This document shows, piece by piece, positions 3,261 through 64,000 of a stretch of 64,000 nt of DNA. The stretch covers positions 70,556,001 to 70,620,000 of the forward strand of contig NC_135881.1 of assembly GCF_964194155.1 (NCBI RefSeq), written 5' to 3'. The number at the start of each line of letters is the position of its first letter. Positions within the stretch are counted from its first letter, which is position 1. The stretch is from Cetorhinus maximus. Its lineage: Eukaryota. Made by a program: the position numbers and the translations under genes. Below the pieces are notes generated by a model, which saw nothing but the letters and a program-made list of their open reading frames with translations, did not search any database and was not told the DNA's origin.

Positions 3261-3303
3261 TCAGTTCTGCTGAAGGGCCATGAGGGCTCGAAACGTTGAC
3301 TGA
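3261..3303 (+). ncRNA. Minimal type I hammerhead-like motif in Penelope 3' UTR (variant core CUGCUGA)
   Basis: tcagtt-CTGCTGA-a-gggcc(atgag)ggctc-GAAA-cgtt-gactga: stem I and stem II pair, with palindromic ACGT in place of stem III. Confidence 0.55.
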
Positions 3304-26282: not shown

Positions 26283-26287
26283 GTTAC

Positions 26288-30155: not shown

Positions 30156-30184
30156 CATCAGTTCATGCAAACATATGGGAGCAA

Positions 30185-30279
30185 CTGATGAAGAGTCATA
30201 CGGACTCGAAATGTTAACTGTGTTCCTCTCCGCAGATGCTGTCAGACCTGCTGAGTTTTTCCAGCTATTTTTATTTTTG
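30185..30279 (+). mobile_element. 95-bp Penelope-tail insertion with hammerhead core
   Basis: CTGATGA-a-gagtc(atacg)gactc-GAAA, then the PLE tail; direct repeat tgggagcaa at 30176-30184 and 30280-30288. Confidence 0.82.
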
Positions 30280-31997
30280 TGGGAGCAAGTAGTTTGGTGC
30301 AGAAGTCTTGAAGTCAGCAAAAAGCCCTTCAGCATCCACCATACCACTCCCTGCAGACTCTTGCAACATGAAACACCAAATACATGTAGAATCATAGCAA
30401 CAGCCAGAAGAATTTAACCAGAACTTGACCTGTCAGTAGTCAATGATTCCTTCAAATAATGATGGGGAGAGGTCCTTCCTGCTGTTGAACTTGAGTTCGG
30501 CTGTGCAGGGTTAAGAGAGAGAGCGGCTGGTCAATTGAGCTCCAAAATGCTGCTGTTGGTGTCATACACTCTGATCAGCCTCATACCTGCTCTGCATCCT
30601 TCCAGCAGACATTGACTGCACATGCTGACGCCTGCACCATTGTGGTGTCTGACACAATTCACAAGTGTGCGTGTTTCACACACCATTTTGGCATTCTAAG
30701 GGTACCCATAGCATCCAAAAAAGGGCTCTAATAAGCCCATAAGCGTTTTTGATAATACTAATGCCCTTTTGTATCATCAAAATTCTTGATGACAGTACAA
30801 TTCCGACACGGAGTGGAAAAACAGATGGGTGTACTATGTTACACAAATTCTGGAACCAGATTCAAACCCTTAGCACATTGTTTTATAATTCAGCATGTTT
30901 ATTTTAGCAGCAATGACGTATGGGTGCAAAATAAATTAGAATTTCTACTGACATGTTATCTGTCTGCCCTCAGTTAAAGCATACTGTATGATGGGTTTAT
31001 GGCTGTTAATTATACTTTTATCCCAGATTCAAATTTGCACAAAATAAACCAAAAGTTGAGTTAAAATTTTCCCACTGGAATAGCATTTTTGAGCAAAAAT
31101 ATTGTACTGGATTTTACCATCCAGGGATGGGGATGGATCAGCAATTAAAATTTTAAACATCTCAAACCTGACCCCAAACAGCCTCCAATCCACCCACGTC
31201 TGGTTTTAATGAAGGCAGATCAAAGGGCGAGCAGCCAACCTGCTCCCAAGAGGCATGTTGGTAATTTAAATACTTTAATGGGGCTGGCAGTCTCTGCTTT
31301 AACCTGTTTTACAGGTTTCACAGTGGCCAGTCGGGTTTCCTAGACCTCAGGACACCTGACAGCTAAAGGAAGGCAAGGACAGTTTTGGGACATTTACAGC
31401 ACTGCTTGTTGACCAGGGGGAGCAGCAGTGGTGCCCCTGGGCTCCCAAGCTCCATCCCATCAGTACCCGCTTTCATACAAAGACTGGGGATTGAAAGCCC
31501 CCAAAGATTAGACACCTACCTGTCGGAGATCAGACCTACCCACCCGCAGGATTGGATGTTCCCCTCCCCATTACGCCCCACCCCTAGGTCAGGGATTGGA
31601 CACTGTTGGCAATGTTGAAGATCAGGCCTACCTGTCCCTGTGGCCTGCTCTGGAGTCCTCCCTACCTGTCAAACAGGCGGACTTTTGGACTACTGTGGAT
31701 TCCTATCTAAAGGTCTGCCCCAACATATGTAAGCAGTTTTGCATTTTCACTCTATAGAAACAGCAGTTGTTTAAGGAGTTCTTTCATAAGCAATCAGGAA
31801 TTCACGCACATTGGAGAAACATGCCTTCATACATAGGGAACACACAAACCAGCCGATGTACTCCAGAGACAGCAGGTCAGGTCATAATTCCTTGTAAGGG
31901 TAGAAACTCTGATTGGCGTACAACTCATGCTACATTCCTGTTCATCTTAAACTTGTTTTAAATAGGCAGCTGCTCTTGGTTGTAGATTTTTTTTTCT

Positions 31998-32384
31998 TTA
32001 TTCTTTCATGGGACATGGGCATCACTGCTAAGGCCAGCATTTGTTGGCTGCCCCTAATTGCTCTTGAACTGAGTGGCTTGCTAGGCCATTTCAGAGGGCA
32101 GTTAAGAGTCAACCACTTTGCTGTAGGTCTTCAATCACATGTAGGCCAGACCAGGTAAGGATAGATTTCCTTTCCTAAAGGGCATTAGTGAACCCAGATG
32201 GGTTTTTATGGCAATCGATGATAGTTTCATGGTCACCATTACTGGGACTAGCTTTATATTCCAGATTTATTCATTTAATTTACGCCAGCTAATATGGTGG
32301 GGTTTGAATCCCTGTCCCCACAGCATTAGCCTGGGCCCATGGATTACTAGCCCAGTGACATTAAAACTATGCCACCATCTCCCC
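31998..32384 (-). mobile_element. tRNA-derived SINE with Nin-like central domain
   Basis: Minus strand: tRNA head (B box gattcaaacccc), ggttcactaatgccctttaggaaagg...tctggcctacatgtga...gtggttgactcttaactgccctctgaaatggcctagc, then a LINE-like tail. Confidence 0.7.
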
Positions 32385-32549
32385 AATTATTATAATCTCC
32401 CCAGATTAATGGAAGACTAACTCTGGGTGATGTCTGGGACCTGGGGAGCGATTAGGACTGGGTTGTTGCTGGTGGGAGACTGCAAGCCAATTTCAGATTG
32501 CCTGTTGTTGCCTTGCTGAGAACTGACTGATGGCTGGGGACTAGCTGCG

Positions 32550-33895
32550 GGTGGAAAAATGTTAGAAGTCATTATTAAAGATGTTATAGCAGGGCACTTA
32601 GAAAAATTCAAGGTAGTCAGGCAGAGTCAACATGGTTTTGTAAAAGGGAGATCACATTCAACCAATTTATTGGAATTCTTTGAAGGAGTCACATGTGCTG
32701 TAGATAAATGGGAACCGCTGAATGTACTGGTACTTAGATTTCCAGAAGGCATTTAATAAAGTTTCACAACAAAGGTTATTGCAGAAAATAAAAACTCACT
32801 GTGTAGGGGGTAAAAATTGGCATGGATAGAAGATTGGCTAGCTAACAGGAAGCAGAGGGTTGGCATAAATGGATCTTTTTCTGGTTGGCAGGATGTGACG
32901 AGTGGTGTGCCACAGGGATCAGTGCTGGGGCCTCAACTTTTTACAATTTATATAAATAACTTGAATGAAGGGACTGAAGGTATGGTTGCTAAATTTGCTG
33001 ACAACACAAAGATAGGTAGGAAAATAAGTTGTGAAGAGGACGTAAGGAGGCTAAAAAGTGACATTGATGGGTTAAGTGGCAAAGATCTGCAAATGGAGTA
33101 TAATGTGGGCAAATGTGAAATTTTGGCAGGAAGAATAAAAAATAAGCTTATTATTTAAATAGTGAGAGATTGCTCTGAGATTCAGAGGGATCTGGGTGTC
33201 CTAATGCATGAATCACAAAAGATGATACAGCAGGTAATTAGGAAAGCTGATAGAAAGTTATCATTTATTGTGATGGGAATTGATTACAAAAGTAGGGAGG
33301 TTATGCTTCAGATGTACATGGCATTGGTGAGACCACATCTGGAGAATTGTGTACAGTACTGGTCTCCTTATTTAAGGAAAAATGTAAATGCGTTAGAAGC
33401 AGTTCAGAGGAGGTTTACCAGACTAATACCAGGAATGGGTGGGTTGTCTTATGAGGAAAAGCTGGACAGGTTAGGCTTGTATCCGCTGGAATTTAGAAGA
33501 GTAAGAGGTGACTTAATTGAAACCTTTAAGATCCCGAGGAGTCTTGACAGGGTGAAGGTGGAGAGGATGTTTCCCCTTGCGGGAGAATCTAGAACTAGGG
33601 GTCACGGTTTAAAAATAAGGGGTCGCCCATTTAAGTCAGAGATGAGGAGAAATTTTTTCTGTCAGAGGGTTGTGAGTCTTTGGAACTCTCTTCCTCAAAA
33701 GGCATTGGAAGCAGAGCCTTTGAATATTTTTAAGGCAGAGTCAGATAGATTCTTGATTAACAAGGGGGTGAAAGATTATTGGGGGTAGACAGGAATGTGG
33801 GGTTGAGGTTACATTCAGGTCAGCCATGATCTTATTGAATGGGGGAGCAGTTTCGAAGGGCCAAGTGGCCTACTCCTAATTCATATGGTCGTATG
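32550..33895 (+). mobile_element. CR1 LINE RT and 3' tail (disrupted)
   Basis: SQHGFVKGRS, SGVPQGSVLGPQLFTIYIN, KFADNTK, LVRPHLENCVQYWSP, RVRGDLIETFK. Confidence 0.92.
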
Positions 33896-34679
33896 GTGAT
33901 TGAGTAGATTCAGTGGTTGACTGTTGGCAGTGGTTATTTGCCTGCAAACTGGTTTGTTAGTGACTTGTAAAAGGATGGCTTCTCATGACATGCAGCTAAC
34001 CCTGGATGGATGGCTTCTGGTTGTGTCTGCAGATGAGCCCCTGTCTACAGACTACTCATGGTAGCTGGTGTCTGGCTGGCAGACTGCTAGTTGTGGTTGG
34101 GTGGTTTTTTGTGATTATGGTAGCTTGCTATATTGACTCCAGTGTTTGGCTGCTACTGAAGGCTGCTTCTACTGGTGATGGTTAACTGACTGGCTGGCAG
34201 GTGGTGATCGCTGAATGGATCAATTGCTGTCTTGCTCCTACCAGTTGGTTGCTAGTGATGGTTTACTAGCTGTGACCAATAAGTTGGCTGGCCCTCCTGG
34301 TCTATATCGCTCAGTTACTTGCTGGATAAAGTCATTAAGCCATCGGCAGCATGTTTTGAGTATTCTAAATAACATGCTGTGTTTCTGCACATAATTTGTT
34401 AATATGCACATCTTAAAGTATTTCCATAGGGAAAAAAACACCTTACAAAGTGCTGAAAAATGAACAAACTAAAGAACCAAAGATTAACATCTGGGGGAAA
34501 TGTTCCCTGTCTTCCCTTAAAGAAGGAATGTACTGCGCAATCTACAGTATATCCACTTCTAAAATTATCACTACACCACTGATCCTTTTATATGTTTGCA
34601 TCCAGTATTATATCAAAACACCACAGTGACACAATTAAAACAAAGGATGTGTGGAAATCAAACGGGGTTTCATAGCAAT

Positions 34680-35205
34680 CGAGAGGTTTTGAATTCAAAT
34701 CCCGCAGTTGGACGTTGTGAAATTGACTTTATTAAATCTGTCATTTTGACCTTTCAGATAAAATGTTAATCTGAGGCCCAGTCTGACCTTGCAAATGGAT
34801 GTTAAATATCTCATGGCACTGTTCAAAGAAAAGGAGAGTTTGCCTAGTGTCCTAACCAATATTTATTCCTCAACCAAGGTTACTAAAACAGATTATTCAC
34901 GATTGAAGAAGGCTCTGAAGAAGGGTCATACAGACTCGAAACGTTAGCTGTTTCTCTCTGCACAGATACTGTCAGGCATGCTGAGTTTTTCCAGCATTTT
35001 CTGTTTTAATTTCAGATTTCCAGCATCTGCAGTATTATTCATGCTTTTATTCATTGTTGATGTTTGTGGGACCTTGCTGTGATCAAACTGACTGTTGCAT
35101 TTCCTTAGATCACGGCTACTCTTCTGAAGCACTTAACTAGCTATGAAGTTCTTTAGCACCTGTTGAGATCATGAAAGGGGTTATATAAATGCAAGTTCTT
35201 TCTTC
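34680..35205 (+). mobile_element. DeuSINE (SacSINE1/AmnSINE1-like), interrupted
   Basis: gtgtcctaaccaatatttattcctcaacc...tgtttgtgggaccttgctgtg...tatataaatgcaagttctttc matches the Deu-domain/L2-tail pattern as I recall it. Confidence 0.72.
34900..35033 (+). mobile_element. Penelope-tail insertion with complete minimal hammerhead
   Basis: ggct-CTGAAGA-a-gggtc(ataca)gactc-GAAA-cgtt-agct; direct repeat attattca at 34892-34899 and 35034-35041. Confidence 0.75.
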
Positions 35206-35386
35206 CTCGCTCTAATTTGTGGGCGAGCACCAAGAGGGAAGGAATAATACAAGTTGCTAGATTGTTTGAAAGCCCAACTGGGGCAATAATGTTGTTCAGG
35301 GTAGGGAATCTACCATACTCTCCTACATGTCCCTATCCAGTCTAAATGATATTGACTCCAGTCACACATTATGTGAGTAACTGCAA

Positions 35387-36085
35387 GGGCTGAATTTTGA
35401 AGTCATTGGGCAGGCGCGGTGGGCGGGCCCGTGAACAGCCGGGAAAAGGTCCACCACTCGCGATCGGCCCCCCCGACCATGAATTCACGCTGGCTGGCCA
35501 ATTAACGGCTAGCCGGTGTGAGAGGCGCACCAAAACGCGCAGCGCTGCCTGGGTAGGGGTGGGAGGAGGGCAAGCGCAGAAATCTGCGGATGCGCAGGGG
35601 AGCACGTGCTGAAAGCTCCCTGAGGGCACAGAGCTGCCTCAGGGGGCTGAAGAATTGTACAAAGGAAACTAAAGATTTTAAAGATGATATAAACATGTCC
35701 CCACAGGTGACTGAGTCATATGAAGAGGGACACATTTAAAATGATGGTGAGAAATATTTAATGGATTTTTATTTACCATTGGAAATCTCATCCCACCCAT
35801 GAATGAGGATTCATTAAAAATACAAAGGCCGCTTGGCCCATTCGCCCGTCTGCCAACTGAACGGTTGGACGAGCAATGAAAAATACAAATTAATTAATTG
35901 CTTAAGGGTCTTAATAGGCCTCTTAATTGTCAGCAGGTGCACTGCCACCTCTCGCGCGCACCTGCCGACCGAAAGATCGCAAGAGTGCATAATGACATCA
36001 AGACGCTCGCCCCATGTTATCACGTATGATTTTACGCCCGATCGGGTCAGGCACATGCCCGCCCGATGAACGCAAAATGCTGTCC
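35387..36085 (+). mobile_element. Harbinger-type MITE (same group as 28941)
   Basis: TIR-like gggctgaatttt; shared internal ctccctgagg, aacatgtcccc and ctcatccc motifs. Confidence 0.75.
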
Positions 36086-37816
36086 TTAGTTTCCTAGAAT
36101 CACAAAGGGTGGGCATTCAATTCCCGCCCCAGTGTCCATGTGCTCTCTGAAGAAATTTAGTATCAATTGCTGCTGAATTATAGGCTTATGTTATACATAC
36201 TTGTTTACTCCTATCCCCATACCAGCACCCATCCCTTCACAAAGTAATTGCACTGAGCATTCTTTTAGCTATCAGCGAATGAAATATCTTATCCCATTAG
36301 CCTAGACTGCACCAGATCTCAGGTCTGAAGGGTCAATGTTCTATTTCACCAAGCAATATAGTTTCCTTGTTGACTTTTTTGTCATTATTGTTGTTGAACA
36401 CAATGCAGTCTCTAGAATTCTGAAAGCACTATTCCATTCAATTGTATAAATTCCAAATCACAAATAAAAAACTTTTTTAAAAAAGGGCTGCCCAGTAGGG
36501 TCCCCAGACCTACTATCTGTCACTACTTGTTCTCCTTAAGCTGGATAATACAATCTGGGACACACGCTTCTGAATATATCACTGTTGCTTCATCATCAAT
36601 TGATAAGAAATGCCTCTCCAAAACTACAGATCTAACTGTAACTTTTTCCATCCCACCCCTCCTCTGATGTAATCCCACTGTCATGTACGGAGATATTTGG
36701 TGACTTACCAGCTGAGGGGAACTGAAGTCAGATTTCAGCCAAGACAGGATTGAAATTCAGGCATTTCAAATGGAAGTCCAGCTATGACCAGCTGCCTGTG
36801 TTTGTGCAAGAAATTATATGGGGCAGAATTCATTGCAATGATTTAAAATACACTGTAAATTACAGACAATTTGTATTGATCGTGTTTATATAATGAAAGA
36901 AAATATCTTGGCGCAAGGTCGTATGAAATAAATCCATCTTTCTTCACTTAGGGTGAATTGGTCATTAATACAGAGCTCATCCTATCTAGTTTTTTCCAGT
37001 AAGGAACGTCCTGGTATTGCTGTTGTACATGCTAATGCTGACTACTTCATGTCAGAAAAATAGGCTGATTCCCCTAACCGTTAGTGGTGTTTCTGGATTA
37101 GATAGTAGGAGCCTGAGTGCAGTAAATGCTATCTAAAATTGTACAAACTCTTTGGAGATTCAACAGAAATCAAGTAAAATCTATGAGGAATTAACTATCC
37201 TCAAGGCTGAGTTTAGCGTTGGGGATGAAAGTCACTCGTACAGAAACCTCCAATGTTGTTCCACTGATCGGCAGATGAGAGATTGTTTTTCTCCACTGAC
37301 AGAAGATTCATTAGAAAATGAATAATCCTAATGAATATCAAACAGCTGAGACCAGAACCTTGTACAAAATTACACAGGAATACTATTGCATCCAAAAGAG
37401 GTGATACACCTGGGCTTACAGTCAACAAGACATAACAACTTGACATTCTCTATCAAATGACAGATGTTGTCTTGGGTAGCAATTCTCCGTAGGACATTTG
37501 GTCTAGATGGCATTGGTATCAATTATTTTTCCCCACAAGAAAGACATCTTTTATTAGCAGCTCTCCAATAATATTTCAGGTGGTCTTTTTTCCTTCACCT
37601 TTTCTTCAAAGAAAATTCTCAACATTATGTCAATGTGCATTACGAGTCAGATTTTTAGCATCTTAGCAAGTCACAGAAGTTGCTGGCCATAACTTTTTCC
37701 GGTCAGCATTGAGAATCCTGTCTGCCTGTTTGTTGCCATTTGCCAAGTGCTATTTGTATTTTGTAGCTAAATGGTAAGCTAAGAGCGTTTGAACTATATC
37801 CTCCATTTTATTTCCA

Positions 37817-38390
37817 GCGGAAGAATCTTGCCCTTGCCATGGGCACTCGGCAGGGGCGGGCAGGGGCAGTCGGGAAGCCGACCGTCACCCGCGATTAGCA
37901 CAGTACCGCGGTTTTACAGGGGCAGGCCAATTAAGGCCCGCCCAGCGTAGAATGCGAGCGGCAGCGCTCAACGCTGCCTGTGCAGGCGGGTGGGGGATGT
38001 GTGAGCGGGCCTAGCGTGAACTTTGCGCATGTGCACAAAACAGCGCTTCAATCTCCCTGAGGCACGGAACTGCCTTAGGGAGATGAAGCACTGTTTAAAA
38101 AAACTAATGAACAAAATAAAAATGTCATAGAACATGTCCCCTCATGTCACTCTGTCACATGAGAAGGGACATGTTTTTAATTCAAGTGTAAAATTTTTAT
38201 TTTATTTTTATTTGCATTAGAAACCCTCATCGCGCCCGGATGAGGTTTCCTAAAAAATGCAAAGGCCGCTTGGCCTTTTCGCCTACCTGTCAACCATTAG
38301 GTTGAACAGGCAGTGAAAAATTAAGCACAATTGTTAACTTAATGGCCTTAATGGGCGTGCACCCGCACACCAAGGGAAAAATCCTGCCCC
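37817..38390 (+). mobile_element. Harbinger-type MITE
   Basis: Same internal motifs; right end aaaatcctgcccc. Confidence 0.75.
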
Positions 38391-38482
38391 AAGTATACTT
38401 TACAAGTCATAATGTGGAATGAGATAATTAATCCAAACTTAAATTTCAAAGCATGCATGTGACCATTATAACTTGAGAACTT

Positions 38483-39163
38483 GGGCAGAACCTTCCAGTT
38501 GGCATGTGGGGGCGGGCCCGACACGCCAACACATAAAATGATGCGCGATGAGGTCGGGCGTGCCTCCCAACGTCATCACGATATTTTGTTCAGTTGGCTC
38601 GTGCCAGGGTCGGCTGCGCACCCGCTGAAATGTAAATGGCCTGTTAAGGCCATTAAGTAATCAATTGAGCCACTTGAGAATGCTGCCCGTCCAACCTTAA
38701 GGTTTGCGGGCAGGCGGAAAGCCCAAGCGGCCTTCGTGTTTTTCAGGAAACGTCATCCACGAGCAGGATGAGGTTTCCTGAAGCTTTTATTAAATAAATC
38801 AATTAATTTTCATAAATATAAAAACATGTCCCCACTCACGTGACACAGTTACATGAGGGGACATGTTTAAATAAATTTTCAAAGCAATTTTTTTTTGTTA
38901 TTTTCATATCCATTCAATCTCCCTGATCGCTGTGCTCTTTTACATGCATGTGTGAAAGAGCACAGGCCCTATCTCTCCTTCCTCCCCCCATCCACCCGCA
39001 CAGGTAGCGCTGAGCGCCACCGGCCGTGTATTACACTGGGCAGGCCTTAATTGGCCCGCCCATGTAAAATGGCAGTGCGGAGCCAATCAGGGACGGTGAT
39101 CGGCTCCATGCCCACCCCCGCCCGCTCTCATCTGTGCTGCCCGCCATAGGAAAATTCCTGGCC
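38483..39163 (-). mobile_element. Harbinger-type MITE, opposite orientation
   Basis: gggcagaaccttcc...gaaaattcctggcc; internal motifs in reverse order. Confidence 0.75.
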
Positions 39164-42450: not shown

Positions 42451-45400
42451 TGTTGTTAAATTTCCATTGTTTAGTAGAATCACATAAAATTTATTACTTT
42501 GCACACCAGGTCCAATCTAAGGCAGCCATAGTACCACCCACACTGATCTTGAGTATTAATACCTTCAAAACGCAGAATTAGCTTCTCAACACAAGCACTC
42601 TTAACAAATCCTTTTCCAGTGGTAGATAGCAAAGCAGCTTTGAACACTATTGTTGTCATATGCCTGGCTTTGAATGAATCTCATGAATTGCTGCTCTTTT
42701 CTCGCCTTGGTTTCAATAGCAAATTTCAGGAAGCCCAGGAAATCCAGGCATGCTGCATTAAGTTTAAGTACTGGTTGAAAAGCCACTGCAGTTCACTGAT
42801 TTAAAAATTCAAATCACCATCTCACTTCAATGGAGGGGGTTACGTACACAGAATCAAATGCGCCAAGGTTAAACCTGGGAGTTGGTATGTTAGAGCTGGT
42901 TTCCACACATGCTAACATTCTTCACAACACAACCTCCTACCCGTATCTAAATCCATGAGTGCAACAATGTTAAAATTCCCCCTAATGGCTTCAGACAACT
43001 GGATCTGAAAGGTTTTTTGGTATTCAGATCCAATAAACAGGTTACTTTGTAGTATTATAGGAAAATAAAAAATGAGATATTTACGATGCATACACTTTGA
43101 ATAGTTGGGACAAACAGCTTCAGAAAATTCTCAATATCTTCACTTCTAGAAACAAAGTAGGCATTTCAATCAACTTAATTGTGAGAAACTTATTAAATGC
43201 TCTTACGTGATTAGAACCACAAATGAGAGAAAAGGACTAAGGATTTGTAATAACATAATAAAATGAAAAACAGAAAAAGACCAATCTACCTAGCCTGATC
43301 TAAACGTGCAGTTGTGATGCCCTATGCATCAAATATTCCCTTACCCCACTGGAGCAATATATAATCCCCCAGGAAAGGCAAAAAAAAACATTTGAAAACA
43401 GGCTAATTAAGGAAAAGAAATCTGGAAAACTCCTCTCTGATGCCTTTCAGCAGTTGACTCGCCCTTACATGTGGTTCTCTCCACTCCAGGCGGAAACAAG
43501 CCCAGTTTCCTCCTGCAGGAATGCAGCAAATCAGCAATCATGACACGAGTTAGCAATTGGCTCCATTGTTTTCTGGGCAAAGAGAGACCACCTAATATCC
43601 AATCTATTTCTGCTCAGTGACCCCTGGTCCTCCTTAACCTTTTCAGTTGAAATAATAAGCACAAGCTAATTACTTCACTATTTGATAAGCCTTCATCAAA
43701 TAACCATTAACTCTGCTTTTCTAAAATATACAGGCCCAGTTCTTTGAGTCAATCTTAGTAACTAAGCTATTCTAAACTGAAAATGAACCTTGTGTCATAC
43801 ATCTGCATCCTTCACAAAGCCTCAACACCTTTTCAAATTAGTGTTATTGAGTCGTTCTGCACATGTTTTTGTTAATACTGTTAGCATTAGAAAGTACAGC
43901 AATATTGCTTAAAATCTGTAATGTATAAATCAACTAGTCTGGGACTAGAAGGTGGTGTAGTGTATTGGGCTACCATTGTATAATGCTATTGAGTGGAAGG
44001 ACGTAAATTCAATCTCCCAGATCACTGAATTCCTCATCTCAGTTAAACTGTTGGACAAGGGATTGTCCTTATGCCAGCAGCTTTGGTGGCTATATGGGGA
44101 CGCATTGGTGGTCCTCTTGTTTACAATTAATTTGAGTTTCAGGGAGATCAAAGGGAACTGGGAGGAAGCAGAATCTGTTCATTGGTGTGTTAATTGGACA
44201 TTTCTGCATACCAAAAAATACATTATGTCAATGGAAAGCCAACTCATACTTTGTATTTATATATTTATATGAGAAATATGATCTAACATGCATAACATAT
44301 GAATTGACAGAACCTATTATGGATGTGATTGATAGATGAAACGTGAAACATATGGTTAGAATGTTGCCTGGAACCCATTGATTCGATTACTGAATTTTAT
44401 AATCACACTCATTGTTCTTTATTTTGAGAAAGTATGTATGAAATTTGTAATTGAGATAGATGCATGAGTAGGCTTATAGCATATTTAAAGTATGATATGC
44501 TCTGATGACATGTCCCACCCCAAACATTAATCAATCTTGCTTTTTTTTTCAGATGCTGACTGAACTGTTCTGCGTTTACAGCATTTATAGTTTTTGTTTC
44601 ACATTTACATTGTTTCTCTCTATTTAGTGGTTTAGTGCTTGAGATGCATTAAAATATATAGATTATTGATATCTTTGGACTGAAGGCTTTTGAAAAAATT
44701 CACAATAAGATTGTGATCAATTTTATTAAAAATGAAAACATATTATTTTCTCCCCAGTATTACTCATTCATAAGGCTACAATTAGGATGCTATGTGTGAC
44801 ACTTCCTCAGAAGTTCAGCACATTTATACATTGAACAAATGGACAACACAGACCAGAAAGTTCCAAAGTTCTACCTCTGTTTTGTGCCAGGTTAATTGAT
44901 TTTAGCTAAGGGGGTGTTGCAGCATTAAAGTTACTTCCAGTGCCTTTGGATCAGATAGCAGAAAAACAATAAATATTTCCACACATGATTGGCATCCAAC
45001 AAAACATTAGTTGAGGCGGGAGTTAGTTGTGATAGCCCCTGTGAATGAATAACCTGCTGGCACTCGCTGCTACGGGCCACATATGAATAATGGTCACTGG
45101 GGTATAATACAATACCCCAGCTAGGAGTAAATACCTTGAATTTAATCGGGGAGGAGAGGGATGGAGGAAATTTTGGCTGAAAAAACATTCAAACCTTCAG
45201 AAAGGCATTAGCTCATTAATGAAAATCATAAAAGGATCACAAAAATTACTTCTCAAGGTCAATATTCTGGAGCTTTCCCGGAAGTTAGGCCAAAACTTGC
45301 CAAATCCTTTTCTTAAGGATTTGTTTCCCTCCTCAGTGAATTGAATGGGCTGGACAGATTCCTTAATAGGGAAAACTGTTCAAGATTTATGAAGGAACTG

Positions 45401-48337: not shown

Positions 48338-51300
48338 TGAACACACGAACATACGAAATAGGAGCAGAAGAGCCTGCTAAGTCATTCGATAAGATCATGG
48401 CTGATCCGTTTGTGTTTCAAGTTCCACATTCCCATTTACCCCCGATAACCTTTGATTCCCTCATCTAACAAGAATCCATCTACCTCTGCCTTAAAAATAT
48501 TCAGTGAGACCCTGTCTCCGTCGCTTTCTGATGCAGAGAGTTCAAAAGTCACACAACTCTCTAAAAGAAAAAAAACTCTTCTCATCTGTCCTATAAAAGC
48601 GAGCCCTGATTTTAAAACAGTGCCCCCTTCTGGACTCACCCACAAAAGGGAATATTGGCTGGGATTTTCCAGCTCCGTCGCAGGCGAGGTGGCGCCCCGG
48701 CCAGAAGTCCATTGACTTGCGGCTGGACCGGAAGGTCGCGGTGGCCGGTTGGTGTGGAAAATCCTGCCCATCCTTTCCACATCCACTTTGTCAAGACTAT
48801 TCAGGATCTTATATACTTCAATCAAGTCACCCCTCACTCTTCTAAACTCCAGTGGAAACAACCTAGTCCAACCTTTCTTCATAAGGCAACCCACTCATTC
48901 CAGGTATCAATCTACTAAACCTCCTCTGAACTGTCTCCAATGCATTTACATCCTCCCTTAAATAAAAAGACCAAAACTGCACACAGTATTCGAGATGTAG
49001 TCTCACCAATGGCCTGTATAACTGAAGCATAGAATCCTTACTTTTATGTTCAATTACTCTCATAATAAAGGATAACATTCCATGAGCCTGTTGTACCTGC
49101 ATACTAACTTTTTGTTACTCACGCACAAGAACACCTAGATCCCTCTGCACCTTGGAATTCTGCAGTCGTTCTCCGCTTAAGTAACTCTACTTTATTATTC
49201 TTCTTGCCAAAGTGAACAACTTCACATTTTCCCACATTATACTCCATCTGCAAGATTTTTGCCCACTCACTCAACTTATCCATTTCCGTCTGCAAGCTCC
49301 TTATGTCTTCTTCACAACATACTTTCTTACCTATCTTTGTGTCATTTGCAAATTTAGCTATCATGCCTTCACTCCCCTCATCTAAATCATTGATGTAAAT
49401 GGTAAAAAGTTGAGGCCCCAGGACAGACCTCTGTGGGACTCCACTTGCCACATCCTGCCAATCAGAAAAAGACCCATTTATGAATACTCTCTGCTTTCTG
49501 CCAGCCAGCCAGCCAATCATCTGACCAGGCTAATATATTACCCTCTACACCATGAGATTTTATTTTCCACAATAACCTTTGATGTGGCACCTTATGAAAT
49601 GCCTTCTGGAAATCTAAATACAGTACATCTACAGGCTCTTATCTATCCACCGCACATGTTACTCCTCCAAAGAATTTAATAAATTGGTTAAACATGATTT
49701 CCCTTGCATAAAACCATGCTGACTCTTCCCAATTACTTCGAACACACCAAGCTAACTGGCCTATAGTTTCCTCCCTCCCTCCCTTCTTTTATAGAGGGGT
49801 TATATTTGCTATTTTCCAGTCTGATGGAACCTTTCCAAAACCTAGCAAATTTTGGAAAATTAACACCAACGCATCTACTACCTCATTACCACCTCTTTTA
49901 AGATCCCAGGATGAAGTCCATTTGGATCCGGAGACTTGTCAGCCTGCAGCTCCATCAGTTAGCTCAGTACTGCTTCCCTAGTGATTGTAATTTCACCAAG
50001 TTCCTCTCTCCCCTCCACCTTTTGATTTACAGCTATTACTGAAATGTTTTTTATATCTATAGTGATGACAGAAGCAAAATACTTATTCATTTCATCTGCC
50101 ATTTCCTTATTATTTACTATTAATTCCCCATTCTCACTCTCCAGAGGACCAACATTCACTTTACTTACTCTTTTCCTTTTTAATTACCTGTAGAAACACT
50201 TGCTATCTGTTTTTACATTTCTAGCTAGCTTCCTCTCATACTCTAATTTCTTTCTCCTGATTGATCTTTTCGTCATTCTCTGCCGTTCTTTATATTCTGA
50301 CCAATCATCTGACCTGCCACTCATCTTTGTACAATTATATGCTTTTTCCTTAAGTTTATTGCTTTCCATAACTTTTTTAGTTAACCACGGATGGTGGGTC
50401 CTCCCTTTAGAACTTTTCTTTAGAGTAGGAATATACTTATTGTGAGTATTCTGAAATAGCCCCTTAAATGTCTGCTACTGCTTCTCAGTTGATTTATCCT
50501 GTAGCCTGGTATCCCAGTGCAATTCAATTAGCTCAGCTTTCATGCCCACATAGTTGCCCTTATTTAAGTTTAAAATGCTAGTCTTGGACCCACTCTTCTC
50601 CCTTTCAAACTGGATGTAAAATTCAATCATATTGTGCTTTCTGCTACCTAGGGGTGCCTTTACTCTGAGGTCATTAAATAATCCTGTGACATTACATCAT
50701 GCCAAGTCTAATATGATCTGCTGTCTGGTAGTTTCTCAGAACAGCACATCCTGGAACCATTCTCAAAATCATTTTATAAACTCAGGTTACTACTGCTGAT
50801 CTGATTTTTTCAGTTTACATGTGGATTAAAGTCTCCCATGGTTATTGCCATCCCTTTATCACAAGCACCCAATATTTCTTCTTGTTTACTTTATCCTACA
50901 TTGTGGTTACTGTTAGGGGACCTGTAGAACACTCACACTAGTGATTTCTTTCCCGTACTATTCCTCATCTCCACCCAAACCGATTCTACATCCTGATCTC
51001 CTGAACCAAGTTCATTTCTAACTATTGCACAAATACCATCCTTGATTAACAGTGCTACCCCACCACCTTTACCTAACTTCCTATTCTTCTTGAATATAAT
51101 ATACCCCTCAATATTCAGGATGCAATCCTTGTTATCTTGCAGCCAGGACTTCATAATGGCTATCAAATCATATTTATTTACTTCAACGTGCGCTCTCAAT
51201 TTGTTCACTTTGTTATGAATGCCACGTGCATTCAGATATGGAGCCTTTAGCTTAGTCTTATTGTTATCTTTGTCTTGATTCTTTCTGCATTCTTAGGTTT

Positions 51301-53747: not shown

Positions 53748-54985
53748 TGGAGCATGGTGAACTAGCAGTATGCCTGATGGCCTACAGAGCGTGAGAGAAA
53801 GTGACTGAGGCTTCTGGCTGCACAGAGGCAGGAGCAGAAACCTCAGGAAGAAGGGGCGGCTAGGGTGCCCACACACGTTGCCCAGGAGCCAGTGCGAGCT
53901 GTCGCTGGTTGGCACCTAGCGACATCCAGGGTCTATAGGCGCCACCTTTCAGTCCTGCAGATGACCGAGAACCAGTGTCGCCGAAAGCTGTGCATGTCTA
54001 GGGAACTGGTCGCTCACATCTACCAGCTACTGCAGGATTTGGCACCATGGGGACATGGAGGGCATCCACTGCCAGTGGCTGTGAAAGTGACTGTGGCGCT
54101 CAATTTCTACACCAGTTGCTCCTTTGAGGGCTCCACAGGTGACCACTCTGGGATCTGACAAGCCTCCACCCACAAATGCATCCATGAGGTCACGGATGCC
54201 ATCTTTGTGAGGGCACACAACTTTGTGCATTTCACCCGGGACCAGGACAGCCAGGATGCAAGAGCGATTGGATTCACCCAGATCTCGTGTTTCCCACATG
54301 TGCGGGGTGCGAATGACTGCATTCATGTGGCGCTCAGATCTCAGTCGCAACACACAGTGACTTCATCAACTGCAAGGGTTTCCATTTGCTGAATGTGCAG
54401 CTGGTGTGTGACCACCAGAAACACATCCTGCAGGTTTGCGCACGGTTTCCAGGGAGTGTGCACGACACCTACATCCTCAGTCGGTCACAGATCCCTGGAG
54501 TCTTCCAGGGTCCACAGAAGCTGCAGGGATGGCTCTTTGAGGGCAAGGGCTACCCGCAGAGGCTGTGGCTGATGACACCCATACGGTGGCCTCAGACTGC
54601 AGCAGAGCGATGGCATAACGAGGCTCATGATGCAACTCACAACTTGGTGGAACAAACCATCGGGATGCTGAAGGTGAGGTTCCAGTGCCTGGACCGGTTT
54701 GGTGGAGCCCTGCAATACAGTCCACAGAGGGTGCCACGTGTCGTTGTTATCTGCTGCGCCCTTTACAACCTGGTACTGCAATGGGGAGACAAACTGGCTG
54801 AGGAGGACATGGAGAAGCTGCACGTCTCCAACGATGAGGAGGATGCCAATGGGAATGAGGGTCAGGAGGTCCTCGGAGAAGACGATGACGGGGATGAGGG
54901 CCTCACACTGGCTGGATGAGACAAACGTGCTTGGGAGGCCCTCATAGCTGCCAGATTTGTGGAGGATGATGTCAACATGCAGTGA
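53748..54985 (+). pseudogene. HARBI1-like DDE transposase, disrupted
   Basis: LPVAVKVTVALNFY, GANDCIHVAL, LNVQLVCD..ARFPGSVHDTYIL, KGYP..WLMTP, VEQTIGMLKVRFQCLD, CCALYNL; stops and frameshifts. Confidence 0.9.
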
Positions 54986-56041: not shown

Positions 56042-56672
56042 TTGGTAGAGCAGCGCCGACCTCACCGTCAGCACAGGACTGGTCATGGTCATCGCTGGCC
56101 AGCTGTATGGCTCTGTTTTCAAAGTCCATGAGAGCCTTGATTTCGGGCATTCCGCCACCAATCTGCGACCTCTCCCTCTTGTTGTGTGCCAGCTTGTCCT
56201 GCATGGATAGAGATGGAGAGAGTGTAAGAAGGACGCCTGCCAGGCCAGATGATAAGTATGTCTGGCCTGTGTGGGTGGTGAATGGTCCCATGGATGGGAT
56301 GAGAACAATGAAGTTGTGTGTGAGAGAGTGAATGGTGATGTCCCTTGAACTGGCAGTGAGTGAGGGCCCTGTGGATGTGTGATGGGTTTGTGAGTGTGTG
56401 AGTTAAGATTGATGAAAAGAGTGACTTACCCTGGCAGAAAGGATGAGAGCATTCATCCTGTTGTGGCACTGGGTGGCTGTCCTCTTTTGAAGGGCATTGG
56501 CACTGACCACCACTGCCACCACTTCCCAAACCAGTTTAGTGCTGTTGCTGTCCATCCTGCGGCCAGAGCGGGGGTAGAGGATATCCCGGCAGGCATCCAC
56601 GGCATCCAAAAAGTACTTGAGCGACGCGTTGCTGAACCTGGGGGCTGCAGTCTTCTTCAGTTTCAGGGCCAT
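56042..56672 (-). pseudogene. Harbinger Myb/SANT-like (NAIF1/MSANTD-type) gene, exons 56672-56430 and 56198-56042
   Basis: MALKLKKTAAPRFSNASL...WEVVA..VSA...RTATQCHNRMNALILSAR|gtaagt...catgcag|DKLAHNKRERSQIGGG. Confidence 0.8.
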
Positions 56673-59600
56673 ATCTTCTGTGCAGCAGTAGTGGTCTGGA
56701 AGCACTGAGATGTGTGCTTGTGGCTGGACTTTAAACAGGGCGCCCAGTGTGATGCAGCAGTGGGATGATGACGGGTGAGAAAATGAGAGCCTACCTGCCA
56801 TGGAAATGATAATGAGGTCTTCCTGTTAAATTCAGTAGAAGTTTCACATTCCCAGGATTTCTAGGATCCCCCTGTAACTGCATGTTCCCTCTCCTTTCCC
56901 AGCGCCATGTAAATATCAGGGCCCAGTTTATTTCTTCCATATAGGACAATGAAAAGCCATGCTAACATTTTTGTTGGTTATGAAATGTAGCTTTGTTCTG
57001 ACCCAAACATTTCAATGAAAGGCATCTAATTATTTTAATACCTCACGAGGTAAAAAGTATGCAAAGAATTAGAGGTCGCCAAGATGATGAAGTATGATAA
57101 ATCATATCACAAACCAACATTCTTAAGAGAGAAGGGATGTGTGGGGAAAGAAATTTCAATATACGGGCTCTGAATTTCCATGGGCCTTCCAGCTCCCTCT
57201 GGCCAGATATGCCCAGTCCGGTCCTCAATTTCCAGTATCTGCAGGACTTCGAAGTCAAACCTCCTTTCACTTCAAGCAAGGTCGCCCACCTCTCAGAGAA
57301 CATGGATATGAGTTGGAGACTCCCAGACATGGAGATTCCTAATTCCCAATCTGGGATCCACAGAGCAATCAATGTCTGGTCTTGCAAACTGAGGCTGACC
57401 TCGAGCTTGGGTCTCTGACTTCACTTGGACCACCAAATAAGGATGAAATCTATTGGGCTTCATCACCCCTCTCCGGCTATCAGAGCCAATGGTTCCATCA
57501 AAAAAAATCTTTGCCAGCAGCCAGGGAACAAGAAAGAATAACTGGGAAGCACCCGTAATGTGATGAATGCTGAAGTAGTGCGGGTGCTAACTAGCAATAT
57601 TTAAAACTAGTAACCTTGCCTGGCCCTGGAGGCTTTGCCAGGGTTTGTAGTAGAGAACACCAGTAGATGCATCCTAGCACTGATGTTGGCGTGTCAGCCT
57701 CACAGAGCTTCAGCTCTATTGTCTTTCTCCATATACTTTCCATGAGAAAATTGTTATAAAATCTCCCACCTTAAAGAAAATATGCTTATTCTTCACTGTC
57801 TATATTCGGCCAGGTGGAATACTGAAATTTCTCCAGGAAAAAGATAAATAGAAGGAAAAAAATTGAAGGAAAGGTTGTGTTTATGTAGTGCCCTTCACAT
57901 TCTCAGCATATTCCAAAGAGCTTCACAGCCAAGGAATTAATAAAAATTTAGGAAGTAAAAAGTGGTCCATAGCAAAATGAGGTTGCAGAAAAACTGAAAG
58001 TCTGAAGCAAAACCATAAAAACACAAATAAGGAAAGAAAAGTCCAGTAAGAGAATGGCGTTAAATTTAATAAGTAGATCAATATTACACCTTCTTGTTTT
58101 TGTAATGCATTTCATTATTTCCCTTCCTGAAGTTTCCTACTACCACCCTATCCACAGCATCAATTGAAAGCATAATCCCAGCCCTTCACAAATGTATCTC
58201 TCAGCTTTTCTCTACTAAGTGTACTAGAATACCAGGAATTCCTGTTCCTGGATTCCATGCTGGAAAACGCCTGGCTTCTGTTCAGTTCCTCCTCATAGTG
58301 CAACCGTTAAAATCTGGAAATTATTAGATGGGGAAACGGGACATGACCGACATTCACCTGGGGAGTGTCTAAGAATAGAAAATTCAATTTTATAATGGAG
58401 CTGTTGGATAATTCTAACAATCAATCTCTAAACTCTGTCATCCTATACATTCCAGTAGCACTGAATTTTCTGTTCTCAGTAGTCTCTGATTGGCATCCTG
58501 GAATGACAGAGATATTTATTTGTTCAAGATAAAACATAAGTACTGAGTAGATAAAATCAAAGAACAGTGTGAAATGATACCACAAGCCTCGAAATGGGCC
58601 CTAAGTGGTGAACTAGGCAGGAATTTAATTGTGAAGTCAATGGAAACTACAAAGATGCTTTAAGAGAATTGTGAAAGTTACCCTGTTTACAGTAACTTAA
58701 CTGCCTGTTGCATTATTGGAAAGATAACTTTTACAGTGTTAAATCTGAATCAAAGGGAATTCCAGTTGTAGTTAATGCAATCAGTAATTGTGGTGCTGTT
58801 TAGTTATCTATGTCTGCATATGTATTGCGAATGTCACCTTTCATGAATGTGGAACTGTTTATTTTGAGAAGGCTTTACAAATAACTCCTAATTTTCATTG
58901 CAATTGTGCAATCAATAAATGTTGCTCTTTTAACAAAATTGAGCTGTTCTTCAAAATCATGCATCGATTGGTGTAAGAAGCAGCTACACCCTTGGCTATC
59001 AATGTTGTACATTTCAAGACACAATGGTGGGTACCTGTTCCCTGCCATTTTCTAACACCTAGTTTATAAGTGATTGACTTTATCAAGGAAAAATTCTGCA
59101 AGTCTACTGGCTCATTCACTGTAAATAAGAAATGTGCAGTGCGACCAATCAAATGCAGTCCAGACAATGAAAAGGGTCAATGGCAATGCAAATATCAACA
59201 ATATCCAAATATTGCACTCTTTGAAATACTTTTTCAGTAAGAGGATGAGTAATCTTATGATCAAACAATTACCATCTGCATTTGCTTTTCCAATATAACA
59301 TGATTTTTTTTATATAACAACCAGCATAGATCATAATTCAAATTGATTGATACCACATTAAGAATTCTGCTTGCTAGTGCAGATCATGAATACTGTATTC
59401 AGGCTATAACATGCAACTTAATAAAATAACTTCTGTTGTAAGCATTGCAGTGATGAGCTTGATGTGGAATTTATCAAATTTAACTGCATTATATTGTCAT
59501 ATATACTGTTTAGTGAATGGCTCTGTAAGCTACTGTTAAAAAGACTGACTAAAAGTACCCTGATAAGTAATGGTATAACCCTACTAACGACTATCAACAC

Positions 59601-60049
59601 ACATTGCACAATTCAGCATCCTCACAGGAGCTCAGCTGAAGGCAAATTCTATTTGCTTTTAGTCTATTAATGTATATAACATATATTTAACATTTATGCA
59701 TCCATATGTAAAAGCATAGCTCACAATGCAGTTTTAGTATTCTATTCCTCTGGTTAATTCATGTGTGCCAAAGCATTTTTGCAATCATGTGTGAGATGAA
59801 AATGTATTGCAAATTATATTCTAATATATTCAAATTAGCCACATTGACATGTAACTAGGCATCCTTGAGACTGGGGCCTACAGAAAAAAAATTACTGAAA
59901 ATAGACGGTAGAAAATAACAGGAGCTCCAGCAATACTAGGAGGAAGCCCTCAGTGGTAGGGTGGTTTATTCCCATTAGTAAAATTTAGGACGTCATGAAA
60001 AATTTGAGACTTATTTAATTATGACTGAAACTAGGGTTGTAAATCTGAA

Positions 60050-60524
60050 CAAACAAACTACATAGTTACGAGGAACAGGTTGGCTTAAGTAGATTAGGAA
60101 ACTAGATTAAAAGATATGACAGTAGATAAGCAATCACGAACATTTAAAGAATGAATTCATAATTTGCAGTGAACACACATTCCCTGAAGGAATTAAAATA
60201 ACCCAAGGGGAAAAGTGGTCCAAACATGGCTAACAATAGAAGTTAGAGATAGTATAAGATTAAAGGACAAGGCTTATAAACTTGCCAAAAAGAGTAGTAA
60301 GACTGGGGACTGGTGGACTTCAGAATTCAGCAACAGGTGACCAGGAAATTGACAAAGAAAATAGATAGGAGTATGTTAGTAAGAGACATAGAAACAGAGT
60401 GCAAACACTTCTATAGCTACGTAAAAAGCAAGACATTAGCAAAAGTAAGCATGGGTGCCTTAGAGGCAAAGACAGGAGAAATTATAAGGGAATGAGGAAA
60501 TGGCAGAGGCATTAAACAAATAAA
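60050..60524 (+). mobile_element. CR1 ORF2 linker fragment, interrupted by a Harbinger-type element (60525-61278)
   Basis: KHFYSYVKSK...GALEAKTGEII..NEEMAEALNK; the insert ends in aaaatccagc. Confidence 0.7.
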
Positions 60525-61934
60525 TTGGCCAGCTGTCAGGCTGACAGGGGTCTCACCCACCGGTCAGAGAACCAGCAGGGAACACCCGTCAGTTCCGTCG
60601 GGGAGGCCCAACAGACTAAAGTGCCTTTAAGGCACTTAAATGGCCACTGTTGGCCCTTCCCTGTGATTGAGGTCCTTGGTGTCAGGAGTCCTGCCCACCA
60701 TGAGGCCGGCAGCTCATCATACTGCAGTGTCAACAGGAGTTTGGCATCTGGCGAGAATGCACCTACTAGAGGCCTAGGATCATCGAGGGATCCCAGACCA
60801 AACACGAGTGAAAGCGGGGATCAGGAAGTGTGGGTTGTAGGAAGGGTCAGGGTGTCAGAGGAAGGGTGTCTTCTAGCAGCCAACCCCCCTGCCCAATGTT
60901 GTGTCCCCCAGTCGGACACAGAGCGCCTGATAGCAAGGGACCCATGCACCACCACCACCCCAGCTACACCTTCCCCGCCCCCCACCCCCCCAAGACTGGG
61001 TTTGCTGAGCTGCCTTTGGGAGAAACTGGAGTGCCATGCAGTCCCCAGTTAACCGCTGAGCACTGCTAAATTGAAGATGGCTCAGAAATAATGAGTGTCA
61101 ATTGCCTCATTAATGAGCTTAATTAACATCCTGCCGGCGGCAGCCGGGAATCCCGCATCAGCTCCTTTCGCCCTCCAATCGGGGGCGGTTTTGCCACCAC
61201 CAAGACTGACATGGAGCCTTGATTAAGTGGGCTCAGCTGTCATATTTTCACCGCAATGGGCTGCATAAAATCCAGCTCCTTGTATGTGCATTTAAGGTAG
61301 GTGACACAAAAAACATTCCGATTGTAAGGGTAAGCCAAGGCCAGAAATCTCCCAGCCTCATGGAGACACCTTTGGAGGGGAGATGGAGGATGAGAAAATC
61401 AAAACGATGAGCATTGTGCCAGAATCTGATGTCTTCCCGCCTCCATGAGCTTTTCCCAGAGGTGGGCTTCCAGCAACAATAACTACAAACCTAGCAGTCG
61501 CAGGCAGAGTCAAATAAAGGTATTTAAAACTTCCAATGATGCCTGTTTTGGTACTTCAATGAGATTTTCTGAAAGATGCATACAACCCAACTAGTCACAG
61601 GAGCTCTTCAGCTCCGAGGAAATCACAGCGGGGAGTCATCATTACCTGGAACTGACAGACATTCAGGTCAAGAAGGAGCAAGGCAGCAAAGCTCAGGATA
61701 GGACTAAATGATTTATCAAATTATTCAGACTAAATAGGACAGAAGGGGAACCTATATAAATCCTATAGGGAGGAACATGAAGGTCTTCTCTAAGATGAAT
61801 ATAGAACATACAGAAACATGAGAAGATGATGAACAAGGTCAAAGAAGGACTTGTAAAAATTGTAACTAGAGATATAAAACTAGTAGCGCAACAGTAAGAT
61901 GATGTGTGAAGAAATGTAAACAAATGAATAGTAG

Positions 61935-62334
61935 CAGAGACTGGAGGAGGAGGCTCCGCAAATATCCCCATCCTCAATGATGGAGGACCCCAGCACATCA
62001 GTGCAAAAGATAAGGCTGAAGCATTTATGCCATCTTCAGCAAGAAGTGCCGAGTGGATGATCCATCTCAGCCTCCTCCGGAGGTCCCCAGCATCACAGAT
62101 GCCAGTCTTCGGCCAATTCAATTCACTCCATGTGATATCAAGAAACAGCTGAAGGCACTGGATACTGCAAAGGCTATGGGCCCTGACAATATTCCGGCAA
62201 TGGTCCTGAAGACTTGTGTTTCAGAACTAGCCGCATTCTTAGCCAAGCTGTTCCAGTAAAGCTACAACACTGGCATCTACCCTGCTACATGGAAAATTGC
62301 TGGGGTATGTCCTGTACACAAAAAGCAGGACAAA
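61935..62334 (+). mobile_element. CR1-group LINE fragment (pre-RT region)
   Basis: KAMGPDNIPAMVLKTC..ELA..LAKLFQ, WKIA.VCPVHKK. Confidence 0.8.
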
Positions 62335-64000
62335 TAAGAATAAGAGCAATAGTAATAGGGAATTCTATAGTCAGGGGAACAAATAGGCACTACTGTGGCC
62401 GTCAACGTGACTCCAGGATGGTATGTTGCCTCCCTGGTGCCAGGGTCTGGGATGTCACTGAATGGCTACAGGGCATCCTGAAGGGGGAGGGTGATCAGGC
62501 AGAGGTCATGGCACATGTTGGTACCAATGACATAGGTAGAAAGAGGGGTGAGGTCTTGCATCAAGAATTCAGGGAGTTAGGCAGTAGACAGGACCTCTCG
62601 GGTTGCAATCTCTGGATTACTCCTAGTGCCACATGCTAGCGAGCTCAGAAATAGGAGAATAGCGCAGATGAATATGTGGCTTAAGAGTTGGTGCAGGAGG
62701 GAGGATTTGAGATTCCGGGATCACTGGGACCGTTTCTGGGGAAGGTGGGACCTGTACAAGCGGGACAGTCTACATCTGAACCAGAGCGGGACTAACATCC
62801 TTGCAGGTGGGTTTGCTAGTGCTGCTGGGAGGAGTTTAAACTAATTCAGCAGGGGGAGGGGACACAGAATGTTAGCAGAATAGGGACACATCATAATACA
62901 GTAAAACAATCAAGTCAGAGGGAGTACAGCTGCATGAAGTTTCAAGGGAGTAAGGCAAGGCAAGAAGGCCTCTACTTTAAGGAGTACTACAGGTAAAATG
63001 GACGAGTTAAGGGTGAGCCAAAACAAAAACAGAATTACCTGGAAAAACTCAGCAGGTCTGGCAGCATCGGCGGAGAAGAAATCAGTTAACGTTTCGAGCC
63101 TTCATGGCCCTTCGGCAGAACTGAAGCATAGTTAGGAGAAGGGAGAAATATAAACATATAAAAACATATAAATATAAACATATAAAACATATAAAAATAT
63201 ATAAAGGGCCATGAAGGCTCGAAACGTTAACTGATTTCTTCTCCGCCGATGCTGCCAGACCTGCTGAGTTTTTCCAGGTAATTCTGTTTTTGTTTTGGAT
63301 TTCAGGCATCCGCAGTAGCTTTTAGCTTTTTGTTTTTATCTCTGAGTTAAGGGTGAGGATTGACACGCGGAATTTGATATAGTAGCAATCACAGAGACGT
63401 GGTTGAAGGAGGGACAGGATTGGCAGCTCAACATTCCAGGATATAGAATCTTTAGGTGAGACAGGGGAGGGGGTAAAAGAGGAGGAGACATTGCATTATT
63501 AGTTAAGGAGTCAGTTACTGCAGTAAGGAGAGATGATATCTTGGAGGGGGCATCGAATGAAGTTTTGTGGATAGAGCTTAGGAATAAAAAAAGGGGCAGC
63601 CACATTGTTAGGTGTTTATTATAGACCCCCAGATAGTCAGCAGGAAATTGAGGAGCAAATATGTGCACAATTTGCAGAGCTGCGTAAAAACATTAACAAT
63701 AGGGTAATTCTATTAGGTGATTTCAACTTTCCCAACATTAATTGGAATAGACATAGTGTTAAAGGCTTGGATGGAGTCAATTTCTTGAAATGTGTACAGG
63801 AGAACCTTTTAGGTCAATATGTAGAGGGCCCAACAAGGGACGGCGCAGTGCTGGACCTAATTCTGGGGAATGAAGCCGGACAGGTGGCTGAGGTGGTGGT
63901 GGGGGAGCATTTTAGTCATAGCGACCACAACATGGTACAATTTAAGCTTGTTATGGACAAAGAAATAGACAAGTTTCAAAAAAATATTTTGGATTGGGAG
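62335..64000 (+). mobile_element. CR1 LINE: ORF1 SGNH esterase and ORF2 APE start, continuing beyond the window
   Basis: IVIGNSIVRG, CLPGA, HVGTND, DSLHLN; then AITETWL, YYRPP, LGDFNFP, LDLILGN, SDHN. Confidence 0.9.
63018..63343. mobile_element. Palindromic mini-Penelope insertion with 14-bp TSD
   Basis: 95-bp inverted arms at 63018-63112 and 63204-63298; TSD gagttaagggtgag at 63004-63017 and 63344-63357; near-identical to 3231-3353. Confidence 0.92.

Follow-up and report, generated by a model that had tools for sequence, protein, structure and literature searches.

Short copies of a Penelope-like element in the window

The stretch analysed here (hereafter the window; 64,000 nucleotides of Cetorhinus maximus, positions 70,556,001 to 70,620,000 of the forward strand of contig NC_135881.1, assembly GCF_964194155.1) contains a 5'-truncated Penelope-like element (PLE) together with several short copies of PLE termini that carry all or part of a minimal hammerhead ribozyme motif (Table 1). 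We report that such short copies (stubs) are pieces of three PLE subfamilies (A, B and Y) and no independent non-autonomous class, that their 5' ends prefer the edge of hammerhead helix I, and that they are probably run-off copies of uncut PLE RNA. Positions within the element are numbered from the predicted hammerhead cut GTT^AAC (+1 being the first base after it), which places the 5' strand of helix I at -36..-32, the core at -31..-25 and the ATG at +21; a natural partial tandem of the element (locus L107, unit 3,331 nt) served as reference for position mapping.

Table 1. PLE copies of the window, and related units found elsewhere in the genome
Feature	Position	Strand	Extent and content	Flanking duplication
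Inverted arm of the PLE at 591..3353	1..615	-	reverse complement of 740-1354; extends beyond the window	
5'-truncated PLE, subfamily Y	591..3353	+	open reading frame (ORF) with reverse transcriptase (RT) and GIY-YIG, CX4CxxC linker, 3' untranslated region (UTR); stops at +56	
Short PLE copy, subfamily A	30185..30279	+	95 bp, -31 (C3 of core) to +64	9 bp, 30176-30184 / 30280-30288
Short PLE copy, subfamily B	34900..35033	+	12-nt filler, then -34 to about +88	8 bp, 34892-34899 / 35034-35041
Decayed B-like short copy	44499..44609	+	starts at -34, core included	looked for, none found
Inverted arm, subfamily Y	63018..63154	-	+70 to -67; motif complete, with C at core position 6	14 bp around the whole insertion (63018-63343, 326 bp), 63004-63017 / 63344-63357
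AT-rich filler, 49 nt	63155..63203	.	short repeats of the inverted arm's end, read off the sequence	
Sense arm of the same two-armed insertion	63204..63343	+	-25 to +115; most of core missing	
Internally deleted PLE units, many with two hammerheads	outside the window: L067, L086, L105, L249, L314, L346-L398		ORF +173..+1065 joined to -35..-495	

In the truncated element, a 773-codon open frame (591-2912) encodes an RT (RVT_1, E 5e-7) followed by a C-terminal GIY-YIG endonuclease (E 4e-4, just under the Pfam cutoff), and the linker of its protein is compatible with Neptune and Nematis alike, a CX2-5CxxC linker between the two domains being the Neptune/Nematis hallmark (PMC8557442). Its hammerhead motif lies at 3262-3302, and its 3' end (3262-3353) is the same module and terminus as that of the short inserts. 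The adjoining inverted arm forms with this young element a 615-bp inverted repeat of 99% identity, and the terminus of this arm was found at L110. Moreover, the traits of a PLE insertion unit are present (the partial tandem at L107, inverted 5' copies, bimodal tails and variable 5' truncation), and the parent of the inserts is supported, from sequence features, as a putative endonuclease-containing (EN+) PLE with a Neptune/Nematis-type linker. In subfamily Y the frame opened by the ATG is interrupted by a TAA at codon 11, inside a splice-donor-like CAG/GTAATT (3346-3348 and 63277-63279 in the window, 3138-3140 in L107, and contained in all 35,961 exact Y matches described below), at which position subfamilies A and B are open and read through.

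Each of the three subfamilies represented among the inserts also has long copies. The A copy (2.2% diverged from the long copy L147) has kept the core and helix II and lacks the 5' strand of helix I (1 of 4 pairs), the B copy has a complete minimal hammerhead (core from 34915) behind a filler (34900-34911) that duplicates the element's own TGAAGAAG, and the sense arm of the Y insertion is identical to long copies over the columns compared. The decayed copy reached an alignment score of 86, against a maximum of 47 in 1,000 shuffles. The fillers at 5' junctions (34900-34911 and 63155-63203 in the window; L099, L100 and L185 elsewhere) are often short repeats of the adjoining element end or flank, and resemble templated end-joining or RT realignment.

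The preliminary description of this locus had listed three inserts from at least two subfamilies, with flanking repeats of 8-14 bp, starting in or just before the hammerhead core. Those flanking repeats are real; the third insert, taken for a 140-bp sense mini-element, is one arm of the 326-bp insertion. The start positions hold for the A copy and for the PLE part of the B copy, while the 63204 arm begins past most of the core. Furthermore, the decayed fourth tail placed at 44545-44600 is present, being longer and including the core; the subfamilies number three; and the list had left out the RT and GIY-YIG element at 591-3353, which has the same terminus. The PLE origin proposed for the copies is borne out by the linker, by the RT and GIY-YIG domains and by the common terminus.

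The hammerhead motif was found with a custom descriptor built on the minimal motif of PMC4209133, and a scan of the window with Rfam returned no hammerhead family at E<=1. Rfam microRNA matches at 63063-63254 were rejected as merely mirroring the inverted arms. Within the inserts of the window only the PLE part from 34912 and the inverted arm at 63018-63154 hold a complete minimal hammerhead (in terms of motif only). Of 6 segments folded at minimum energy, 5 formed helix II and some showed pairing in helix I, activity not being inferable from folds. The motif is a minimal type I hammerhead, with at least 4 pairs in helix II in 83 of the 98 parsed copies; core position 6 is C or T, not A, in all 60 parsed Y copies (3267-3273 and 63112-63118 included), and A is mostly retained there in subfamilies A and B.

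5' ends concentrated at the helix I edge

Searches of the genome with exact 33-letter patterns that lie 3' of the hammerhead yielded 35,961 (Y, of the 63204 type), 4,203 (A, 30185 type) and 9,536 (B, 34914 type) matches, and the end statistics are based on 100, 72 and 50 of these, each set taken from the first 100 matches in genome order (222 arms, all from one contig and biased towards well-preserved copies), with 5' ends mapped against 44 (Y), 30 (A) and 12 (B) long copies of the same subfamily. An initial homology search was skewed by its query start and was excluded from these statistics; it supplied L107 and 16 extra arm pairs.

At the helix I edge (-39..-30) we found 67 of the 222 5' ends (Y 22/100, A 24/72, B 21/50), which amounts to 4.9% per nucleotide at risk as compared to 0.48% in the flanks (ratio 10). 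Counted per insertion in Y, the excess persists (13/76, ratio 5.3, p 1e-5). The mode lies at -35 (16 ends, followed by -34 with 12 and -36 with 8), the upstream edge is sharp (9 ends in -40..-60), a shoulder reaches into the core, and the peak is most pronounced in B and least so in Y. Outside this zone the 5' ends are continuous from +24 to about -2050. From the exact tail matches and the fraction at the edge (22-42%) we estimate that arms starting there probably number more than 10,000.

The 3' ends are bimodal in all three subfamilies (+62..79 and +98..122), with none below +61 in samples whose anchors ended at +58, a design in which 3' ends at the hammerhead cut are undetectable. On the 5' side only 6 of the 222 ends lie within 5 nt of the predicted cut, below the local rate, and none do in a second-pass set of 65 arms holding +230..261 (out of 1,647 matches). 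Since no end peak occurs at the cut, the template was apparently read through uncut. The earlier proposal that the ends are dictated by the ribozyme structure holds in a positional sense for the 5' end, which falls at the helix I edge. Neither end is at the cut, and the 3' end is likely set by the position at which reverse transcription starts.

Two-armed insertions and internally deleted units

Among the 100 Y arms there are 24 two-armed insertions, 22 of which couple one long with one short 3' tail (p 2e-5), so both classes of 3' end occur within one insertion. The 5' ends of the paired arms correlate (rho 0.71), and the arms diverge by 3.6% (29 pairs) as compared to 12.5% between unrelated copies (2,974 pairs).

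With an anchor further downstream (+123..152), 52 arms were obtained at 50 loci among the first 100 of 608 matches, and these include a different kind of derivative: in 30 of the 52 arms the ORF start is joined to the 3' UTR or the hammerhead, while a single arm has a skip inside the ORF. ORF junctions begin at +173, none falling in +153..172, though the anchor ended at +152. With two anchors pooled we obtained 38 distinct junctions (units of 214-1,112 nt), 7 of which land at -35..-49, and at least 12 deleted derivatives carry the hammerhead motif in both units. Correlation between the two sides of the junctions is absent over all 38 (rho 0.11) and amounts to rho 0.57 in the 33 with an ORF side below +450, a cut-off chosen afterwards. 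By our own tally, 9 second passes approached a junction to about 25 nt or closer, and 6 of them stopped there. Moreover, three two-armed insertions carry an identical deletion junction in both arms, and a single junction is shared by three loci whose flanks differ (L396-L398). These deleted units of 200-900 nt, and not the stubs, are the better retrozyme candidates; none lies in the window.

Probable run-off copying of uncut RNA

We consider, with a probability of about 0.6, that the stubs are dead-end, run-off copies of uncut PLE RNA with a preferred 5' end at the helix I edge, the -35 edge likely marking where the copied RNA ends. Besides the peak itself, the lack of a peak at the cut, the bimodal 3' ends, the pairing and concordance of arms, the intermixing of short and long copies and the deletion junctions (their lower limit at +173, their landings at -35..-49 and the second passes stopping at them) speak for it. 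The end pattern matches that of PAc (the Poseidon element of Anolis carolinensis), in which RT starts at two internal RNA sites, the two target strands undergo cutting and extension, cleavage by the hammerhead is dispensable with uncut RNA as the dominant substrate, and the template must reach 172 nt of the ORF (PMC11167929). By extension from that work, the RT-endonuclease, a predicted dimer, would bind the RNA downstream of the start sites, both target strands would be cut (giving the 8-14 bp duplication), and one cDNA would be primed at each of the two start sites on the same uncut RNA. Both cDNAs would then be extended to the RNA 5' end and end-joined with filler into two arms, a single arm resulting if the other is lost. 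In the least certain step, an RNA core extending from about -35 to about +173, shielded by helix I and bound protein, would have its 5' limit at -35, and this protected core would be what is left after the trimming of longer transcripts.

Within the run-off reading we give trimming a slight preference over a transcription start at -35, which we hold to be almost as probable. Such a start is plausible: YYAGTT at -37..-32 is an initiator-like motif. PLE promoters are internal to the pseudo-long terminal repeat (pLTR; PMC2377424, PMC8557442). In a cap test on the first 100 of 1,053 matches with a non-T before A-35, copies without upstream PLE had G in 9 cases and A in 8 (counted by eye); there being no cap-derived excess of G, the test leaves a transcription start at -35 unsupported.

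Several observations weigh against the run-off reading. The -39..-30 window was picked after inspection of the data, and the protein-binding segment of the RNA is extrapolated from a Poseidon-clade element. All 23 sequencing runs considered consist of contigs (their RNA origin mostly guessed), and the four compared with the element contained no start, end or recurrent splice joint. In the second-pass set only 2 of the 31 arms at risk end in -39..-30, both being deleted derivatives; as copies past the ORF start have no -35 peak, full-length copies would need another, seamless template (a circle or a read-through tandem). With regard to the junctions, 3 of the 9 second passes did not stop (2 ran across and 1 stayed in native sequence), and 4 of the 6 stops are in or near the -35 zone anyway. 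The concordance of paired arms would also follow from two RT subunits moving together or from fold-back self-priming, the latter having been proposed as source of the inverted arm (PMC3846280). Lastly, short copies cluster mildly on the tree described below (40 label changes compared to 47 when shuffled, 11 of 500 shuffles reaching so low a count; p for nearest neighbours 0.015 in Y, 0.18 in A and 0.24 in B), for which paired arms and differences between lineages offer a possible explanation.

The alternative that fares best, though we think it unlikely, is that -35 marks a roadblock on a long or circular template, at which RT stalls in its first pass (the stubs being dead ends here as well). 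The obstacle could be helix I, perhaps paired with a second RNA as a dimeric hammerhead, or a protein bound to the 3' splice-site-like pyrimidine tract and AG at -57..-34. A second pass with no peak (2/31) is what a roadblock predicts if the RNA is by then in hybrid; a pyrimidine run and YAG stand just upstream in all three subfamilies (79-85% pyrimidine, as compared to 72% over the 3' UTR), and the D. virilis Penelope intron has its 3' end placed at the 5' end of helix I (PMC4209133). However, the ends contain the whole 5' strand of helix I, when a structural stall would be expected 3' of the helix, helix I itself also requires the AG, and pyrimidines are abundant throughout the element. Neither was a spliced form seen: a single one of 70 short copies has sense PLE directly upstream, and a captured upstream exon was rejected, none being common to the 70 stubs. 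One duplicated pair alone has other upstream sequence in common (L207 and L212), these two sharing their junction because one insertion was duplicated with its flank. At L212 (about 1300-3250, reverse strand) the duplicated stub and its flanks are fused directly to the 3' part of a PLE ORF, which suggests capture of a host RNA by template switching.

More tentatively, and as an extension of the run-off reading that we regard as doubtful, the genome may record the footprint of a PLE ribonucleoprotein. The core from helix I (-35) to about +173 would be the minimal substrate, from which RT would either run off (yielding stubs) or jump end-to-end (yielding two-hammerhead units of 200-900 nt), i.e. 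retrozymes born singly, of which a few would already have been re-copied, as at the three loci with one common junction.

Truncated copies rather than a separate family

The preliminary description regarded the inserts as a retrozyme- or SINE-like population, a self-propagating family mobilised in trans by the PLE, which we consider very unlikely. In its favour are the large number of arms, the common 5' boundary, the target duplications and the mild clustering on the tree. In that tree, which is weakly resolved and covers 93 columns in 70 short and 76 long arms, short copies are interspersed among long ones, the label changing 40 times, and a single clade of short copies is rejected (approximately unbiased test, p 2e-12). 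No variant present in at least 50% of short and at most 10% of long copies was found in any of the three subfamilies, so the diagnostic variants anticipated for an independently replicating family are lacking. Tandem arrays, also anticipated, are almost absent: two exact head-to-tail junction patterns gave 5 matches in 4.0 Gb, 3 of them true dimers (lower bounds), and a sense copy accompanies 1 of the 70 stubs in the 400 nt upstream. The tandem arrangement of a non-LTR retrozyme is absent from all four window inserts, and the stubs do not form the lineage of their own that marks a SINE-like family. Furthermore, a stub has one hammerhead, often broken (as in the 30185 and 63204 copies), has no end at the cut, and ends at or before about +122, when the ORF-side deletion junctions begin at +173 and none lies lower. 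As the stubs stop at the RT start sites, they are without +120..+173; by analogy with PAc this missing segment is probably needed for re-copying, and the stubs are probably unable to move again.

The opposite reading, ordinary random 5' truncation with no preferred end, we hold to be highly improbable. The continuum of 5' ends is in line with it, and truncated PLEs bearing a single motif are already on record as accounting for most genomic minimal hammerheads, together with pairs on opposite strands at distances of 100-700 bp (PMC4209133). The roughly 10-fold excess in a 10-nt window is nonetheless repeated across three subfamilies, in samples drawn in genome order from anchors lying 3' of the hammerhead. 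Of the two observations named beforehand as reducing the inserts to ordinary truncations, the intermixing of short with long copies was found, and the lack of a breakpoint preference is contradicted by this strong preference at the 5' end. Hardly credible, lastly, is the production of the ends by hammerhead self-cleavage, since despite a minimal type I motif with its helices kept, 5' ends at the cut are scarce or absent, core position 6 is altered throughout the parsed Y copies, and a true cut at -35 is disallowed by the motif geometry (established hammerhead numbering), by which position self-cleavage is excluded as origin of the -35 ends.

Other features of the window

Open frames at 21366-22324, 54317-54919 and 56403-56825 are presumably Harbinger-type transposase and Myb-like fragments, near which long inverted repeats occur (37856-39125 and 22368-28343). 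We take 6497-7431, 15023-16243, 33159-33788, 48436-49529 and 62187-64000 to be fragments of CR1-type LINE RT/endonuclease, and the two-armed insertion at 63018 is nested within the last of these (its CR1 identity being likewise our assumption).

Comparison with known systems

In LTR retroelements, minus-strand strong-stop DNA arises from an RT start close to the RNA 5' end followed by run-off, leaving a short product of fixed length. The stubs differ in being target-primed, in having no tRNA primer and in having their product inserted, so that the strong-stop case is an analogy only.

Taken as a product, the stubs are known. Published EN+ PLE insertion units comprise a pLTR, an adjacent inverted copy and a tail of 30-40 bp, and the copies described here resemble them in their 5'-truncated form (a terminal repeat with minimal hammerhead and the first ORF codons), in the inverted 5' arm with an optional one-arm tail and a variable target duplication, and in the occurrence of partial tandems (L107) next to mostly solo motifs (PMC8557442, PMC3846280, PMC4209133). 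Truncation of these units is described as variable, unlike the sharp 5' peak at helix I reported here, and no account of this peak or of the +173 junction limit was found in the literature searched, which mostly excluded subscription papers.

With PAc the shark element shares two classes of 3' ends about 35-40 nt apart inside the ORF start, 3' ends downstream of the hammerhead, an apparently uncut template and the apparent extension of both target strands (PMC11167929). It differs in its Neptune/Nematis-type linker and in its ATG, which lies past the cut and not in helix II. We consider that the stub statistics constrain the mechanism by which PLEs use their hammerhead and by which tandem and inverted insertions originate, in that the copied RNA is mostly uncut, that both published RT start sites are used per insertion, and that a discrete boundary exists at helix I.

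Non-LTR retrozymes, which one cartilaginous fish genome has also been reported to contain, consist of tandem units that each carry a hammerhead, and give rise to monomeric and circular RNAs; like the stubs they are derived from PLE terminal repeats, carry a type I hammerhead motif (complete in some of the stubs only) and are non-coding (PMC7229834; bioRxiv 10.64898/2026.07.22.740005). Unlike them, the stubs are dispersed as monomers or inverted pairs. The deleted two-hammerhead units stand closer to retrozymes, and may show concretely how PLEs could give rise to non-LTR retrozymes, a connection for which the arguments have hitherto been co-occurrence and trees.

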